From: a virus | Lineage: Duplodnaviria > Caudoviricetes | IMG/VR virus record: IMGVR_UViG_3300020474_001671 | Coordinates: 1-61,945 of that record | Reading direction: 5' to 3' (one strand) | Length of the DNA stretch: 61,945 bases | Shown: positions 4,691-58,586 of the stretch, one piece after another | How the letters are laid out: each line of letters begins with the position of its first letter | How positions within the stretch are numbered: the first letter of the stretch is position 1 | The notes under the pieces: model-generated | Seen by the model: the letters and a program-made list of their open reading frames with translations, nothing else | Told to the model about the DNA's origin: nothing | Databases searched by the model: none | Position numbers and translations under genes: made by a program

Positions 4691-4765
4691 ATGGAAATTA
4701 TAGCAATCATCGCAGCAATCTCAGCAACATCATTCGGAGCATATTGGATGACACCAAAACAATGA
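4691..4765 (+). CDS. Micro-ORF, 24-aa hydrophobic peptide
   Basis: MEIIAIIAAISATSFGAYWMTPKQ; followed by terminator. Confidence 0.4.
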   Translation: MEIIAIIAAISATSFGAYWMTPKQ

Positions 4766-4779
4766 TAACTGAATGAAAT

Positions 4780-4815
4780 GGTGGGCTTGACGCCCCCTTT
4801 TTTATGCTTTATAAT
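4780..4815 (+). promoter_or_regulatory. Terminator hairpin fused with sigma70-type early promoter
   Basis: TTGACG (4787) N17 TATAAT (4810); GC stem and T tract. Confidence 0.8.
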
Positions 4816-4868
4816 ATGGGAGTGAACAGCAGTAGTCTGAACACACTGACCTCCATGCCATTAAGAGT

Positions 4869-32569: not shown

Positions 32570-32782
32570 ATGAACGAACAGCAAAATCACCTTTCGCAAT
32601 TATTGGAACAGAGAAATAATCTTGCATCTAAGTTAGAAAATATTAATAGTGAATCTACAAGAACAAGAGAACTGATGTTTAAAACTCAGGGTGCTATTGA
32701 GTATCTGGAGGCAACCGGAGTCAAATTGCCGGAACCTGAACCAGAAGCAGAAGTGTCTGAGACGGAAGTCGTAGAGGGTTGA
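32570..32782 (+). CDS. Coiled-coil hypothetical protein
   Basis: QQNHLSQLLEQR...KTQGAIEYL. Confidence 0.7.
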   Translation: MNEQQNHLSQLLEQRNNLASKLENINSESTRTRELMFKTQGAIEYLEATGVKLPEPEPEAEVSETEVVEG

Positions 32783-32807
32783 CGCACAGACCATAAGGAA
32801 TTATAAT
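32779..32807 (+). promoter_or_regulatory. Sigma70 promoter of tRNA cluster
   Basis: TTGACG N17 TATAAT. Confidence 0.8.
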
Positions 32808-32821
32808 ATGAGGGTACACAT

Positions 32822-32923
32822 ATGTGGAGGGGACACAGACGCTAGAGAAAAGGCATTTTCTCATTACAGTAGTAGTTAGTTCCGTAAAGGAGGGTCGGGA
32901 ATCTGTATACCCCGCCTCCACGT
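32822..32923 (+). ncRNA. Candidate structured ncRNA abutting tRNA-Arg
   Basis: atgtggag-ggg-acacaga pairs with tctgt-ata-cccc-gc-ctccacgt; internal hairpin gagaaaa-ggca-ttttctc. Confidence 0.55.
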
Positions 32924-32997
32924 GGGCAAGTAGCTCAGATGGACAGAGCCACGCACTTCTAATGCGTTGGTCGGGGGTTCGAGTCCCTCCTTGCCTG
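32924..32997 (+). tRNA. trnR: tRNA-Arg(UCU)
   Basis: Acceptor gggcaag/cttgcct, anticodon arm acgca-cttctaa-tgcgt, GTTCGAG T-loop. Confidence 0.93.
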
Positions 32998-33006
32998 TCG
33001 TAGATG

Positions 33007-33014
33007 TATAAATA
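33007..33014 (+). promoter_or_regulatory. Late promoter inside palindrome
   Basis: gtagatgtat-aa-atatatctac containing TATAAATA. Confidence 0.55.
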
Positions 33015-33028
33015 TATCTACTTTACAA

Positions 33029-33102
33029 TCCCCTGTAGCTCAATCAGGCAGAGCACGAAGCTGTTAACTTTGGGGTTACTGGTTCGATTCCAGTCGGGGG
33101 AG
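33029..33102 (+). tRNA. trnN: tRNA-Asn(GUU)
   Basis: tcccctg/cggggga acceptor, cgaag-ctgttaa-ctttg anticodon arm, GTTCGATT. Confidence 0.92.
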
Positions 33103-33104
33103 TT

Positions 33105-33180
33105 GCCAGTGTAGCTCAGTTGGTAGAGCAGGGTACTTGTAATACTCAGGTCGGGCGTTCAAATCGTCTCACTGGCTCCA
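33105..33180 (+). tRNA. trnT: tRNA-Thr(UGU), CCA encoded
   Basis: gccagtg/cactggc acceptor, gggta-cttgtaa-tactc, GTTCAAAT. Confidence 0.94.
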
Positions 33181-33253
33181 GGGGTTTTAGCTCAGTTGGT
33201 AGAGCGCCTGCTTTGCAAGCAGGATGTCATCGGTTCGAGTCCGATATTCTCCA
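33181..33253 (+). tRNA. trnA: tRNA-Ala(UGC)
   Basis: cctgc-tttgcaa-gcagg anticodon arm, G3-U70; acceptor stem has two U-U mismatches. Confidence 0.88.
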
Positions 33254-33254
33254 C

Positions 33255-33283
33255 TTGACAAGATTGAATTCTTGTCATATAAT
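33255..33283 (+). promoter_or_regulatory. Consensus sigma70 promoter with internal 8-bp inverted repeat
   Basis: TTGACA N17 TATAAT; tgacaaga-N6-tcttgtca. Confidence 0.85.
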
Positions 33284-33329
33284 ACTTCTTGTGTGAAGGA
33301 AGTGTGTCGGGAGAGTAATCTCCCACTAT

Positions 33330-33539: not shown

Positions 33540-33923
33540 ATGTTTAAAACGACTATCGCTGCAGCTGCCGCTGCAATTGCTCTTGCCCCTGCTGCCGCCC
33601 TAGCCGGACCCTATGTAAATGTAGAAACGAACGCTGGTTGGACCGGTGACGACTACACTGGTGCCGTTACCGATTTTGGAATCGGATATGAAGGTAATAT
33701 TGGTGATGGTGGTTCTGCCTGGTATATCCAGGGAGGCCCTGCACTAGTCTCTCCTGATGGTGAAGAAACTGAAACACGTTTCTCTGGTAAGGTTGGAGTA
33801 TCTGCTGCTCTTTCCAGTTCTGTCGGTGTATACGGAGAACTGAGTGCTTTAACTGCTGACACTGATCTTTCTTTCGATGATCTAAACGTTGGTGGTAAGT
33901 TGGGTCTTAAGTATTCCTTCTGA
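33540..33923 (+). CDS. Small outer-membrane beta-barrel protein
   Basis: Signal peptide, AGPYVNVE, amphipathic strands, terminal KYSF. Confidence 0.8.
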   Translation: MFKTTIAAAAAAIALAPAAALAGPYVNVETNAGWTGDDYTGAVTDFGIGYEGNIGDGGSAWYIQGGPALVSPDGEETETRFSGKVGVSAALSSSVGVYGELSALTADTDLSFDDLNVGGKLGLKYSF

Positions 33924-34126: not shown

Positions 34127-34483
34127 ATGAAAGCATTCGCAGTTGCCCTGCTCGGTCTGGCGATCTCCGCCCCCGCCATGGCAGGTCCATATGTAGAGTC
34201 CAAGTCCGAGTTCAAAGGAACTGATGAGGAGTTCAGTAAGCAAGTCCACCAAGGACGTATAGGATATGAGTGGAAGACAGGAAACTTTGCTCCATACATC
34301 GAAGGTGGTGCTGGAGTATCTGTTCCTGATGGTGGTGAGCAAGAAGGTTTTACTGCTCTTGAACTTGGTAGTAAAGTAAAGATCACTGATAATTTCAGTG
34401 CTTATGGTAAGTGGGAGAACATTTTCCAAGAAGATTCTACCCGAGATTGGAAAGTAGAAGTCGGCACCAAGTATAAGTTCTGA
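34127..34483 (+). CDS. Second small outer-membrane beta-barrel protein, co-transcribed with pstS
   Basis: Signal peptide, AGPYVE, terminal KYKF. Confidence 0.8.
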   Translation: MKAFAVALLGLAISAPAMAGPYVESKSEFKGTDEEFSKQVHQGRIGYEWKTGNFAPYIEGGAGVSVPDGGEQEGFTALELGSKVKITDNFSAYGKWENIFQEDSTRDWKVEVGTKYKF

Positions 34484-34493
34484 GCATTAGATA

Positions 34494-35453
34494 ATGAAAA
34501 TCAAAGCAATCGCAGCAGCTACAGCAACTATTCCTCTTATGGTTGCCTGTGGTGGATCTAAGGAAACATTTCAACTAAGTGGAGCAGGTGCTACATTCCC
34601 TGCTCCTTTGTATCAAGCATGGTTTCAAACCATGGCAGGTGAAACTGGTAACCAAGTAAACTATCAAGCAGTTGGTAGTGGTTCTGGTGTCCGTCAGTAT
34701 ATGGCTGGCACAGTTGATTTTGGTGCCTCTGATGGTGCTGTAAGTGATGAGAAGCAGAAGATTCCAATGCTCCACATTCCTATGACTGGTGGTGCTATTG
34801 TTCCTGCTTACAATATGCCTGGTTGTGATGTCAAGATGACACAGACACAACTTGTTGATGTATATCTTGGTAAGATTACTAACTGGTCTACCTTTGGATG
34901 TGAAAGTGAAACTATTCTTCCTGTCTTCCGTTCTGATGGTAGTGGCACCACAAAAGGTTTCACTAACTCCCTGTCAGCATTCTCTCCTGAATGGAAAGAA
35001 ACTGTTGGCACTGGTAAGGCAGTGAAGTGGCCCACTGGTGTTGGTGGTAAAGGTAACTCTGGTGTTGCCGCACAGATTAAACAGGTTCGGGGCAGTATCG
35101 GGTATCTGAACTATGGTTATGTGAATGGTGATAAGTTTCAACAAGTATCACTACAAAACAAGGAAGGTAACTATGTCACAGCAAATGCCGAAACATCTGC
35201 TGCTGGTTTGAGTAAGATTGTCTTGGACGATCAACTTCGTGGTGCTGATGCTAATCCTGCTGGTGCCAATGCATACCCTATTGTCTCCCTTACTTGGGTT
35301 CTAGCATATCCTGAGTCTAAGACTGGTGTGAAGGAGACTCTTCGTTATATGTTGAGTGAGAAAGCACAGGCAATGTCTGACGGTCTTGGTTATGTTCCTC
35401 TTCCTGAGGACCTGAGACAGAAAGCACTTGCTGCTGTTGACAGTATCGAATAA
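34494..35453 (+). CDS. pstS: Phosphate-binding lipoprotein PstS
   Basis: Lipobox MVAC, GAGATFPAPLY, YQAVGSGSG, DFGASD, RSDGSGTT. Confidence 0.97.
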   Translation: MKIKAIAAATATIPLMVACGGSKETFQLSGAGATFPAPLYQAWFQTMAGETGNQVNYQAVGSGSGVRQYMAGTVDFGASDGAVSDEKQKIPMLHIPMTGGAIVPAYNMPGCDVKMTQTQLVDVYLGKITNWSTFGCESETILPVFRSDGSGTTKGFTNSLSAFSPEWKETVGTGKAVKWPTGVGGKGNSGVAAQIKQVRGSIGYLNYGYVNGDKFQQVSLQNKEGNYVTANAETSAAGLSKIVLDDQLRGADANPAGANAYPIVSLTWVLAYPESKTGVKETLRYMLSEKAQAMSDGLGYVPLPEDLRQKALAAVDSIE

Positions 35454-56669: not shown

Positions 56670-57507
56670 TCATATAGGAACTATTGGAAGGTTTGGTAAT
56701 CAGATGTTTCAGTATGCGGCACTCAAAGGTATTGCCGCAAATCGAAAGTTTGAATATACCATTCCTCCAGAGAACTCACAAGTTCAAATTGATAATTATG
56801 GATTAATAGAAGCATTTGAACTTACCCACAATAAAAATATTGGATGGATTGAAACTGAAAATATAATTCAGGAAAATCATTTTCATTTTGATGAGGATAT
56901 ATTTAATAAGTGTCCTGACAAAGTAAGTGTTTATGGATTTTTTCAAACAGAAAAATATTTCAAACATATTGAAGACGAAGTTCGTAAAGATTTTACTTTC
57001 AAAAGTAATTGGTTAGATCCTTGTAAAGAGTTTCGTAGTCAGATGGGAGAAGAAGTTATCTTCCTTCATGTTCGTCGTGGTGATCCTGGTCTTACTGATA
57101 AGAGAGGATTTAAGTGGGCATATGTAAACCTTGCACATCAACATCCTGTGCAACCTCTTGAGTATTATGAGAAGGCACTTGCAGAGTTTGATGAAAGTAT
57201 TCCTGTAGTTGTGTTTTCAGATTCGATTGAGTGGTGTAAGGAGCAAGAGTTCTTTCAGAATGATCGATTCATGTTCTCTGAACCAGAAGATACTCATTCA
57301 GATGGTGCATTAGTTCCTTATCTTGATATGTGCTTGATGTCTTTATGTGATCATGCTATTATTGCTAATAGTTCTATGAGTTGGTGGGGTGCATGGTTGA
57401 TTCAAAATCCAAACAAAAAAGTAATTGCACCAAGCATATGGTTTGGTTCTGATTATGCCGACAAAGATACAAAAGATTTATATTGTGAGAATTGGAAGGT
57501 TATCTAA
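56656..57507 (+). CDS. GT11 alpha-1,2-fucosyltransferase-like protein
   Basis: GRFGNQMFQYA, GFFQTEKYF, HVRRGD, FSD, NSSMSWWGAWL. Confidence 0.92.
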   Translation: MIGFNHIGTIGRFGNQMFQYAALKGIAANRKFEYTIPPENSQVQIDNYGLIEAFELTHNKNIGWIETENIIQENHFHFDEDIFNKCPDKVSVYGFFQTEKYFKHIEDEVRKDFTFKSNWLDPCKEFRSQMGEEVIFLHVRRGDPGLTDKRGFKWAYVNLAHQHPVQPLEYYEKALAEFDESIPVVVFSDSIEWCKEQEFFQNDRFMFSEPEDTHSDGALVPYLDMCLMSLCDHAIIANSSMSWWGAWLIQNPNKKVIAPSIWFGSDYADKDTKDLYCENWKVI

Positions 57508-58298
57508 TGGATAGAAATAAGGCACTTTATAAACTTAAAAGACTTCCTCCCATATATTATCTAAATCTGGATGAGCAACCAGAAAGAAAAGAATATATGG
57601 AAGAGCAATTTAAGTATTGGGAGATTGAGAATTATACTCGTATCTCTGCATACGATGGTAGGGACGGTAGAGACCTCGGAGACATTCTCAAAGGAAGATA
57701 TCCTGATAGTATGACTTCTGGTGAAGTAGGATGCACTACGTCCCATCTGAAAGCAATGGTAGAGTTTCTTAAAACAGATGCTCCATGTGCATTGATGATG
57801 GAAGATGATTGTGATATTTCTACTGTATCTTATTGGCCTTTTGAATGGAAAAATTTCTATGCAAAAGTTCCTTATGACTATGATGTAATTCAACTTGCAG
57901 TTATTAATACGGCATCAGTTCATTTACAAATGCATAAAAGATTTGTAAATGATTTTTCAACAGCATGTTATATGATTACCCGTCGTCATGCACAAAAACT
58001 AATTGACCTTCATATAAGAGGAGATAAGTATAAGATTGATAATGGAGTTAAACCAAGAGCAGTTGCTGATGATCTGATTTATAATTCTGGAAATACTTTT
58101 ACTATTCCTTTGTTCTTATACAAACTTGAACTTGGTTCTTCAATTCATGATGAGCATATTGAAGTTTTTCATAAGTCAAGTTATGAAGGTCTTTGGAATT
58201 TTTGGAAAACACAAGCAAACCAAATTGAAGATTGGGATGCACTATTTGACTATGACCCATACTTTAATCGGTTGCCTCCTGGGTTTGAAGGGAAATAA
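57507..58298 (+). CDS. GT25 family glycosyltransferase
   Basis: YLNLD..PER, RISAYDG, GEVGC..SH, MEDD. Confidence 0.85.
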   Translation: MDRNKALYKLKRLPPIYYLNLDEQPERKEYMEEQFKYWEIENYTRISAYDGRDGRDLGDILKGRYPDSMTSGEVGCTTSHLKAMVEFLKTDAPCALMMEDDCDISTVSYWPFEWKNFYAKVPYDYDVIQLAVINTASVHLQMHKRFVNDFSTACYMITRRHAQKLIDLHIRGDKYKIDNGVKPRAVADDLIYNSGNTFTIPLFLYKLELGSSIHDEHIEVFHKSSYEGLWNFWKTQANQIEDWDALFDYDPYFNRLPPGFEGK

Positions 58299-58301
58299 CA
58301 C

Positions 58302-58340
58302 AGAGAGGGGCTTGACCCCTCTTTATTTTTGCTATATAAT
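58302..58340 (+). promoter_or_regulatory. Terminator fused with promoter at end of glycan island
   Basis: agagagggg-cttga-cccctcttt; TTGACC(58312) N17 TATAAT(58335). Confidence 0.8.
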
Positions 58341-58367
58341 ACTGTAATGTTTCTTCACAAAACTCAA

Positions 58368-58586
58368 ATGACTGTAACAACAGAAGACGGTGGACGCACA
58401 AACATGTGGGCCACTGAACCTCGCATGTATGTTGATCCATCTTATACTGAGGCATATGGTCTTGAGACATATGCAGAACGTGCAGAGAAACTCAATGGTC
58501 GCACAGCAATGATTGGATTTGCTTTTGCACTAGTTTCTTATGCCACGACTGGTAGTGTGTTCTTTTTCGGACTTTTTGGTTTTTGA
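58368..58586 (+). CDS. hli: High-light inducible protein
   Basis: AEKLNGRTAMIGF chlorophyll-binding motif, ATTG. Confidence 0.93.
   Translation: MTVTTEDGGRTNMWATEPRMYVDPSYTEAYGLETYAERAEKLNGRTAMIGFAFALVSYATTGSVFFFGLFGF

Follow-up and report, generated by a model that had tools for sequence, protein, structure and literature searches.

What occupies the roughly 115 nucleotides (nt) that separate a strong promoter from the first gene of a cyanophage transfer RNA (tRNA) operon was the question raised by IMG/VR record IMGVR_UViG_3300020474_001671, a 61,945-bp viral contig that was analyzed as a whole and is referred to here as the window. The nearest cultured relative of the window in the tRNA region was Synechococcus phage S-SKS1 (90.5% identity). 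An earlier reading of the window by sequence alone, the original prediction, had proposed that the promoter TTGACG-N17-TATAAT is followed by a non-coding, multi-stem RNA that is joined to the tRNAs and ends directly against tRNA-Arg. The results presented here indicated that this 112-nt segment, which we call the cassette, is real, a structured leader RNA that is uncatalogued and laterally mobile. It was best explained as a discrete, laterally exchanged RNA unit that is plugged into the leader of the tRNA operon.

The cassette lies after the promoter and directly against tRNA-Arg(UCU); its last base is 32923 and the Rfam start of the tRNA is 32924, as had been predicted. The distance from the -10 box to tRNA-Arg position 1 is about 115 nt. 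Two reading frames are open across the cassette. However, the substitutions among copies of the cassette were mostly non-synonymous, the putative start codon varied among copies (GTG, ACG, ATG, and TCG), a 28-nt deletion in the copy from contig L079 shifted the frame, and tblastn of both open frames against 50,697 phage records yielded no match. A protein-coding gene or gene remnant was rejected on these grounds, and the predicted order of a promoter followed by a non-coding segment was borne out.

We then compared the cassette with known RNA families, among them the self-cleaving ribozymes, riboswitches, and cyanobacterial Yfr RNAs of Rfam. At the gathering score, Rfam 15 detected just the five tRNAs in the region and none in the cassette, and at E<=10 the window cassette had no match inside the element. 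The L074 version of the cassette likewise had no match in Rfam 15 at E<=10, and the L079 version had three matches only, with 7 to 12 bits against thresholds of 55 to 175. A match to the DUF2815 RNA (21.9 bits; threshold, 41.2) was rejected because it falls on the promoter (32775-32810), outside the cassette. The RF00005 tRNA model gave no match to 32812-32923 at E<=10; default, relaxed, and intron-permitting ARAGORN runs found no tRNA and no T-loop on the + strand of the cassette; and the ARAGORN search for transfer-messenger RNA (tmRNA), at the default and 70% thresholds, found none in the cassette. Matches in the mitochondrial mode of ARAGORN were on the opposite strand and mutually overlapping, and they were taken as noise. 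Thus, the expectation that the segment would lack a T-loop and match no tRNA, tmRNA, or known motif agreed with these searches. In addition, blastn of the cassette against the same 50,697 phage records gave no match at E<=10, so no cultured carrier was found, and no description of the cassette turned up in open-access full text and bioRxiv, the literature that was covered. An exact 20-nt core of the cassette was absent from 185,579 prokaryote species (one genome each), which makes a near-identical cellular source unlikely.

To find relatives, exact-pattern scans were performed with three different parts of the cassette, and each scan gave the same six IMG/VR contigs; the degenerate patterns that were used added no others. 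A metagenome scan at the Joint Genome Institute (JGI) gave five contigs, one of which was a contig already in the IMG/VR set. Including the window, there were 11 copies of the cassette (six on other IMG/VR contigs and four on further JGI contigs), and these represented seven distinct sequences. A first scan with a 25-nt pattern had found nothing, and a two-block gapped pattern gave 16 more matches that were unrelated and due to chance. A covariance model of the cassette (R1) scored 87 to 145 bits on all 11 copies and had no other related match in 264 kb of compared loci. BLAST found no second copy in the window, and an R1 match at 58300-58379 (-) was rejected as weak (18.6 bits). This match lies on a GC-rich hairpin and T-run 3' of an open reading frame (ORF) at 57492-58298, that is, on a + strand terminator, and was taken as chance.

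All 11 copies were located between a promoter and tRNA-Arg(UCU). Four of them (window, L071, L073, and L079) were in an S-SKS1-like context. The other seven were on contigs with best matches to T4-like cyanomyoviruses, such as S-RSM4, S-CAM9, and S-BM3, and there the promoter (TTGACA-N17-TATTCT) and the AT-rich tRNA-Arg(UCU) were different. When the window was compared with L072, which has the T4-like background, the cassettes were identical at 109 of 112 positions (97%), the upstream 60 nt were 51% identical, and the tRNA-Arg genes were 65% identical. In the comparison with the sibling contig L071, the corresponding values were 93%, 98%, and 99%. Where the window and the contigs of T4-like background have protein-coding stretches in common, these were 66 to 77% identical, and the cassettes of L074 to L077 and L080 were 95.8% identical to that of the window. 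Because the flanks were unrelated and the cassette resembled a copy from another lineage more closely than one from its own, recent lateral exchange between phage lineages was the best explanation for its distribution.

The cassette is accessory, since close relatives lack it. S-SKS1 is collinear with the window over the upstream ORF, the promoter, and tRNA-Arg, but its -10 box is just 14 nt from the tRNA and the cassette is absent; 24 related loci likewise have a leader of 14 nt here. In cultured S-RSM4, 8 nt separate the -10 box from tRNA-Arg, and uncultured L121 and L131 have a plain 8-nt leader before almost the same AT-rich tRNA-Arg as L074.

The coordinates of the cassette, its parts, and the related features are collected in Table 1.

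Table 1. Features of the tRNA operon leader in the window, leader classes among related loci (leader length is measured from the -10 box to tRNA-Arg in the L003-L070 set), and copies of a second leader motif
Feature	Position	Strand	Description
Sigma-70-type promoter	32779..32807	+	TTGACG-N17-TATAAT; 11/12 consensus positions; also kept in S-SKS1 and related loci
Leader RNA cassette	32812..32923	+	112 nt; conserved block common to all copies (alignment A2, 7 distinct sequences)
Small 5' hairpin	32817..32826	+	CAC-AUAU-GUG; 3 pairs; weakly supported, with a single C-G to U-G change
Outer-helix 5' strand	32822..32830	+	AUGUGGAGG; partner CCUCCACGU at 32915-32923
Long hairpin domain	32830..32883	+	Basal helix GGGAC (32830-32834)/GUUCC (32879-32883); encloses the 7-bp hairpin
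7-bp hairpin	32845..32862	+	GAGAAAA-GGCA-UUUUCUC; perfect; 4-nt loop
3' hairpin	32889..32919	+	GGAGG (32889-32893)/CCUCC (32915-32919) and GGG (32897-32899)/CCC (32911-32913); 11-nt loop AAUCUGUAUAC
4-nt tail	32920..32923	+	ACGU; separates the 3' hairpin from tRNA position 1
tRNA-Arg (anticodon UCU)	32924..32997	+	First gene of the operon; Rfam 64.7 bits; placed at 32923-32999 by ARAGORN
tRNA-Asn(GUU), tRNA-Thr(UGU), tRNA-Ala(UGC)	33029..33254	+	Same transcription unit; ARAGORN and Rfam
Leader of 11-14 nt			26 loci; short, no insert
Leader of 44-46 nt			8 loci; hairpin
Leader of 67-69 nt			14 loci; hairpin
Leader of 89 nt			3 loci
Leader of 96 nt			2 loci; hairpin and pseudoknot
Leader of 115-116 nt			3 loci; 112-nt cassette (window, L011, L027)
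Leader of 141 nt			9 loci; HNH endonuclease gene remnant (C-terminal fragment) and different tRNA-Arg allele
Pseudoknot copy	L117:107-159	-
Pseudoknot copy	L129:7157-7209	-
Pseudoknot copy	L134:4995-5046
Pseudoknot copy	L139:4169-4221	-
Pseudoknot copy	L144:2370-2422
Pseudoknot copy	L157:7057-7109
Pseudoknot copy	L176:11903-11955	-
Pseudoknot copy	L009:1794-1850
Pseudoknot copy	L010

The next question was whether the copies have evolved as a structured RNA. The single-sequence minimum free energy (MFE) fold of 32812-32922 had a value of -32.3 kcal/mol (z = -1.75), which 7 of 200 shuffles equaled, so it was weakly unusual; this window MFE fold includes an outer helix that joins the two ends and the 7-bp hairpin. 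RNAalifold with the seven distinct copies (alignment A2) gave two hairpin domains, a small 5' hairpin that is also a DNA palindrome (CACATATGTG), and the 4-nt tail, with no end-to-end helix. In the two-hairpin fold there were 23 pairs; all 154 cells held standard pairs, and three pairs had compensatory double changes. None of 500 column shuffles matched its pairing or covariation score, and slid controls were 49 to 62% paired.

Each substitution in the stems was either compensated or a G-U wobble. The five pairs of the basal helix were 100% paired, and two of them had one-sided wobble changes. The perfect 7-bp hairpin that the original prediction had described was present, and its loop-proximal pair (32851-32856) was A-U in three and G-C in three of the six sequences that hold the hairpin. 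The 3' hairpin, which had gone unnoticed, had eight pairs that were 100% paired in all seven sequences, and two of the pairs were changed on both sides: GGAGG/CCUCC became GAGGG/CCUUC in L071 and L073, and L079 had GAGGG/CCCUC, a perfect complement. L079 had lost the distal 28 nt with the 7-bp hairpin and retained the basal helix and the 3' hairpin, which indicates that the distal hairpin is dispensable. A search for homologs and covariation had been proposed along with the candidate RNA; it yielded the 10 other contigs and these three compensated pairs. Judged from the aligned copies, structure-preserving evolution pointed to selection on the structure of the + strand RNA.

The end-to-end interrupted helix that had been predicted fared less well. 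Its pairings occur in the sequence and are pairable: the end-to-end fold as a whole was 95.4% paired across the seven copies, the outer helix itself had 92% of its cells paired, and ACAGA (32835-32839) and UCUGU (32902-32906) were pairable in all copies. However, the outer helix showed no double change; its 5' strand was invariant and pairing was retained through wobble changes only. A predicted tcc-gtaaa-gga stem was likewise present in the window (tcc at 32881-32883, gga at 32889-32891), but it was broken in two of the seven sequences. Because the outer helix shares the CCUCC strand with the 3' hairpin, the two are mutually exclusive. When folding was constrained, the outer helix was in the MFE fold of three of the seven copies (window, L072, and L078), where it was ahead by 1 to 3.4 kcal/mol, and the hairpin fold was ahead by 3 to 8 kcal/mol in the other four. 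Thus, two hairpin domains appeared more likely to be the conserved fold than one long end-to-end helix. In the two-hairpin fold, ACAGA/UCUGU would be a loop-to-loop contact.

The covariation also bore on the idea that the cassette is a decayed or aberrant tRNA-like gene, with GUGGAGG/CCUCCAC as the acceptor stem, the 7-bp hairpin as the anticodon arm, and GGGUCGGGAAUC... as a degenerate T arm. The arrangement of a 7-bp terminal helix, one base, and then the next tRNA is like the local tRNA-tRNA spacing, and GGGUCGGGAAUC faintly resembles a T arm by eye. Nevertheless, the compensatory changes favor the 3' hairpin, which is incompatible with the acceptor stem. In addition, the hairpin loop has 4 nt, a D arm is absent, and the relaxed and intron ARAGORN runs and the Rfam tRNA model were blank. 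We concluded that this very improbable reading was largely refuted.

What the cassette might do was considered in light of its position. Transcription would start at about 32814, as estimated from the promoter spacing. In the explanation that we tentatively favored, the cassette is a passenger small RNA that is released by RNase P and acts in trans. Host RNA polymerase would initiate at the consensus promoter, and the first ~110 nt would fold co-transcriptionally into the 5' hairpin, the long hairpin domain, and the 3' hairpin, with the 4-nt tail left single-stranded before tRNA-Arg. Bacterial RNase P favors a few unpaired leader bases. The predicted two-hairpin fold leaves the 4-nt tail unpaired, and in the outer helix, leader positions -1 to -9 would be buried. 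If RNase P acts here as it does on tRNA precursors in general, it would cut after 32923, which would make the 5' end of the tRNA and free an RNA of ~110 nt that has a defined 3' end and carries a 5' triphosphate. The freed RNA would be the product, with the strong promoter and tRNA processing serving as its expression platform, and it would presumably work in trans on a host or phage partner. We favored the passenger RNA because the cassette is accessory, because it is kept as a unit beside tRNA-Arg genes that differ by one-third of their bases, and because it is more elaborate than a protective hairpin would have to be. As for the suggestion that such an RNA might be a protein decoy or serve against host defense, nothing pointing specifically to defense turned up.

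Contigs assembled from marine RNA libraries spanned the cassette and continued into the tRNA genes in three of four runs (X1, X2, and X15), with coverage of 32655-33207, 32655-33209, and 32801-33215. These contigs bridge both elements, as co-transcription of the cassette with the tRNAs would predict, although RNA libraries may hold DNA and the contigs could include it; assembled contigs carry no information on ends, strand, or level. The X15 contig had the same A-U to G-C double change in the 7-bp hairpin. Run X19, an oligo-dT library, had no contig over the cassette, which has no bearing either way.

In a second explanation, the cassette is a cis-acting leader module that either gates RNase P or shields the tRNA precursor against RNases that depend on its 5' end. 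In the gating version, a switch between the outer helix (its 5' strand with CCUCCACGU) and the 3' hairpin would tune the maturation of tRNA-Arg(UCU). Both helices on CCUCC can pair in all seven copies. In our reading of the alignment, CCUCC became CCCUC in L079 and a 1-nt insertion there allows the outer helix to form again in a shifted register, and in the three copies that have the outer helix as the MFE fold, the alternative folds are close in energy. A cis role would also fit the other leader hairpins, 44 to 96 nt, that occupy the same site in relatives and the invariable location of the cassette beside the first tRNA. On the other hand, the outer helix shows no compensatory change, and its unfavorable energy in four of seven copies argues against a conserved switch. 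Leaders of 8 to 14 nt suffice for most relatives, which indicates that the cassette is not needed for expression of the tRNA, and a 112-nt multi-domain RNA with 97% identity across backgrounds that have different tRNA-Arg genes is more than a 5' cap requires. We regarded a cis role as possible and nearly as likely as the passenger small RNA.

The 5' strand of the outer helix overlaps a mini-ORF, AUG UGG AGG GGA CAC AGA CGC UAG (32822-32845), which raised the idea of a leader-peptide sensor: ribosome stalling would report the supply of Arg-tRNA and refold the leader. AGG and AGA are codons read by tRNA-Arg(UCU) or its relatives, and AUG, AGG, AGA, and UAG were retained in six of the seven copies. 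However, the sole Shine-Dalgarno-like sequence, GAGG (32811-32814), is at or before the estimated transcript start; the cassette neither contains nor is closely followed by a terminator-like site, and its 3' hairpin has no U run behind it; L079 lacks AGA and has an altered peptide; and seven codons in a purine-rich stretch could easily arise by chance. This was the least probable of the explanations that we weighed.

Purine-rich stretches of the cassette could act as a sponge, in which GUGGAGGGG or GGAGGG pairs with the motif ACUCCUCACAC of the host small RNA Yfr1 and mimics host Yfr2. The Yfr1 motif was confirmed in PMC2190773, and Yfr2 is described as titrating Yfr1 and Yfr10 via a complementary motif (PMC6778093). 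Duplexes of the cassette with the Yfr1 motif ranged from -9.5 to -12.2 kcal/mol across the seven copies; the best duplex with the 11-nt motif (-12.2 kcal/mol, at 32823-32833) was found in three copies. However, 500 mononucleotide shuffles did as well at fractions of 0.03 to 0.05 in three copies and 0.13 to 0.32 in four, any Shine-Dalgarno-like GGAGG pairs with UCCUC, and the bases concerned are partly paired in the preferred fold. The duplex was not distinguishable from chance pairing, and a Yfr1 sponge seemed very unlikely.

Several observations weigh against the passenger small RNA that we favored. The RNA-library contigs establish only that such libraries contain the cassette joined to the tRNAs; they do not show a discrete, stable RNA. 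A search of the window for antisense targets was negative: the two longest unpaired stretches that are conserved matched only themselves, and the conserved loops have no extended complement there. The comparison includes seven distinct sequences only, all at least 87% identical and some of shared descent, and the compensations probably represent three or four events rather than seven. With so few and such similar sequences, the invariance of the loops may reflect recent spread rather than selection, and loops (11 of 66 columns variable) were no more constant than stems (10 of 46). Two pairs of the 3' hairpin are broken by a variant in the X15 contig (32892 G>A and 32899 G>T). Finally, relatives have simple hairpins at the same site, which are equally compatible with a generic cis role.

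To examine the leader site itself, we compared 68 loci from IMG/VR in which a relative of the upstream ORF is encoded; 67 loci had a downstream tRNA-Arg, counting S-SKS1 and the window. Leader lengths fell into the classes listed in Table 1, and 2 of the 65 related IMG/VR loci had the cassette, as did the window. The sequence of the HNH endonuclease remnant was also present in L004 and L022. The HNH assignment was based on the L013 copy (L013:1760-1885), which matched Pfam HNH_2 with 22.4 bits (cut-off, 21). These remnants suggest homing-endonuclease traffic at the leader site.

The variability of the site is also the basis for a further explanation, namely that the cassette is a neutral or selfish passenger with no phage function, a scar or filler of recombination and homing endonucleases that hitch-hikes at a hot spot. 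The site is hypervariable (at least seven leader length classes in the 67 loci), nine leaders of the 141-nt class and the same sequence in L004 and L022 hold the HNH fragment, the T4 homing endonuclease gene segB adjoins the tRNA-Arg of that phage, and the cassette is rare (the six other IMG/VR contigs and four more in the JGI scan). Drifting filler would not be expected, however, to have all of its stem substitutions compensated or converted to wobble pairs, or to show covariation in the closing pair of the hairpin and in two pairs of the 3' hairpin. A function-free passenger was considered quite unlikely.

Other structured RNAs occupied the site. In a second leader motif before tRNA-Arg(UCU), a variable hairpin precedes an H-type pseudoknot of ~53 nt; the motif had no Rfam match at the gathering score. 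Stem 1 of the pseudoknot is UGACCC/GGGUUA and stem 2 is GGUAGUU/AACUACC. In eight distinct sequences, the 13 pairs of the pseudoknot were 99% paired, and five of the 13 were changed on both sides; a further coupled change was CUGCGG with AGCGGCG versus CUGCUG with AGAGGCG. The pseudoknot occurred both on contigs with an AT-rich tRNA-Arg and on S-SKS1-like contigs (L009 and L010). The pseudoknot is better supported than the 112-nt cassette. In L116, L119, L125, and L135, a 19-bp helix (UUAUUAUAUUGAAGCACA... / ...UGUGCUUCAAUAUAAUAAU) surrounds ~45 nt and ends 2 nt before a tRNA-Arg-like gene with TCT in the anticodon loop. R1 had no match to the other leader cassettes. By eye only, the ends of the 112-nt cassette faintly resembled those of the 67- to 69-nt cassette (GUUGAGAGGC...GCCUCUUGAC).

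These findings could be placed in a broader scheme, in which marine cyanophages have a plug-in site in the leader before tRNA-Arg(UCU): unrelated cassettes would be exchanged among phage lineages, expressed at the strength of a tRNA promoter, sized by RNase P, and act on the host. At least two such cassettes would be the 112-nt two-hairpin RNA and the H-type pseudoknot RNA. The presence of other structured, unrelated cassettes at the site makes this scheme more attractive, though it is no proof, and we considered the scheme as a whole rather unlikely. In a bolder variant, the outer helix and the 3' hairpin would form a switch that gates RNase P, an RNA sensor that regulates the maturation of a rare-codon tRNA.

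We also compared the cassette with characterized RNAs of similar layout. The put RNA of phage HK022 has two stem-loops just 3' of a promoter and acts in cis on RNA polymerase to allow read-through of terminators. The cassette shares the two-stem-loop, promoter-proximal layout, but no consistent terminator follows it. RNAs of the E. coli 3'ETS-leuZ type are functional RNAs that are excised from tRNA operon transcripts by tRNA-processing enzymes and act as Hfq-dependent sponges. The proposed excision of the cassette is similar in that tRNA-processing enzymes would release it and no promoter or terminator of its own would be needed. Unlike 3'ETS-leuZ, which comes from 3' or internal spacers of cellular operons, the cassette is the 5' leader of a phage transcript, is far more structured, and has been exchanged between phages.

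The closest parallel in arrangement was in T4, where the annotation has rnaD and rnaC following tRNA-Arg after a 1-nt gap. Like the cassette, rnaC (species 1) and rnaD (species 2; both ~120 to 140 nt) are small non-coding RNAs that abut tRNA-Arg in a phage tRNA cluster, and they are presumably freed by tRNA processing, as is proposed for the cassette. They are described as stable RNAs without a known role in accounts that include PMC3014915 and PMC9697503. Unlike the cassette, which is 5' of tRNA-Arg as the transcript leader, they are 3' of it. There was no detectable homology: with filters off, R1 reached a maximum of 6.5 bits in the T4 tRNA region, not on rnaC or rnaD, and neither T4 RNA matched an Rfam family at E<=1. 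Motifs catalogued in cyanophages and cyanobacteria include CfrI, PhotoRC-II, wcaG, manA, the glnA/glutamine riboswitch, abiF, Yfr1, and Yfr2 (PMC9964418); the cassette resembles the motifs named there in being a structured non-coding RNA of marine cyanophages, but none of them matched the three versions of the cassette that were searched with Rfam 15. GOLLD and ROOL are presented in PMC5737381 as uncharacterized structured RNAs that are often near tRNAs and in prophages. In contrast to these RNAs of 580 to 800 nt with many junctions, the cassette has 112 nt and two hairpin domains and has no Rfam match. On the favored reading, the cassette would work like a tRNA-linked small RNA, yet it is in no described family.

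The surrounding region had several other features. A 70-codon ORF (32570-32782) has its stop codon inside the promoter overlap, and both ARAGORN and Rfam placed five tRNA genes after it in the order Arg(UCU), Asn, Thr, Ala, and Gly. The gap between tRNA-Arg and tRNA-Asn (32999-33028) contains an AT-rich hairpin, GUAGAU-GUAUAAAUAU-AUCUAC, followed by UUU, which could be a weak terminator or processing site; it was shared by the window and L073, had another form in L079, and was missing from L071. At 33255-33329, a second promoter, TTGACA-N17-TATAAT, with a perfect 12/12 match, drives tRNA-Gly via a 46-nt leader that has its own hairpin, and the -35 box and spacer of this promoter form an inverted repeat. 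The tRNA-Gly leader could form a duplex of -12.4 kcal/mol with the Yfr1 motif, a value equaled by just 3 of 500 shuffles. Two small secreted proteins (127 and 118 amino acids) are encoded at 33540-33923 and 34127-34483, immediately 3' of the tRNA cluster and 5' of a PstS-like gene (34494-35453); both have signal peptides and a C-terminal ...KY(S/K)F and may be outer-membrane beta-barrel proteins. On the cassette-bearing contig L072, ARAGORN reported an 81-nt tRNA-Gly(UCC) at 4737-4817(-). In its sibling L078 (~980-1060, oriented context), the corresponding tRNA had a four-base anticodon (tcat), which could reflect an intron, an 8-nt anticodon loop, or an artifact.

Phage tRNA clusters are usually seen only as helpers of codon usage or as spare parts against anticodon nucleases, and the small RNAs inside them have been unexplained since the discovery of T4 rnaC and rnaD. 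Taken with the other cassettes at its site, the 112-nt cassette suggests that, in abundant marine viruses, structured RNAs recurrently occupy the operon leader and are exchangeable there. A freed RNA that acts on the host would represent a cyanophage effector of a new class and a natural counterpart of engineered tRNA-guide-RNA arrays. If the cassette instead gates RNase P, it would represent a new mode of tRNA regulation. If it does neither, the cassette would still add one candidate family to the RNA catalogues, and the pseudoknot a second.

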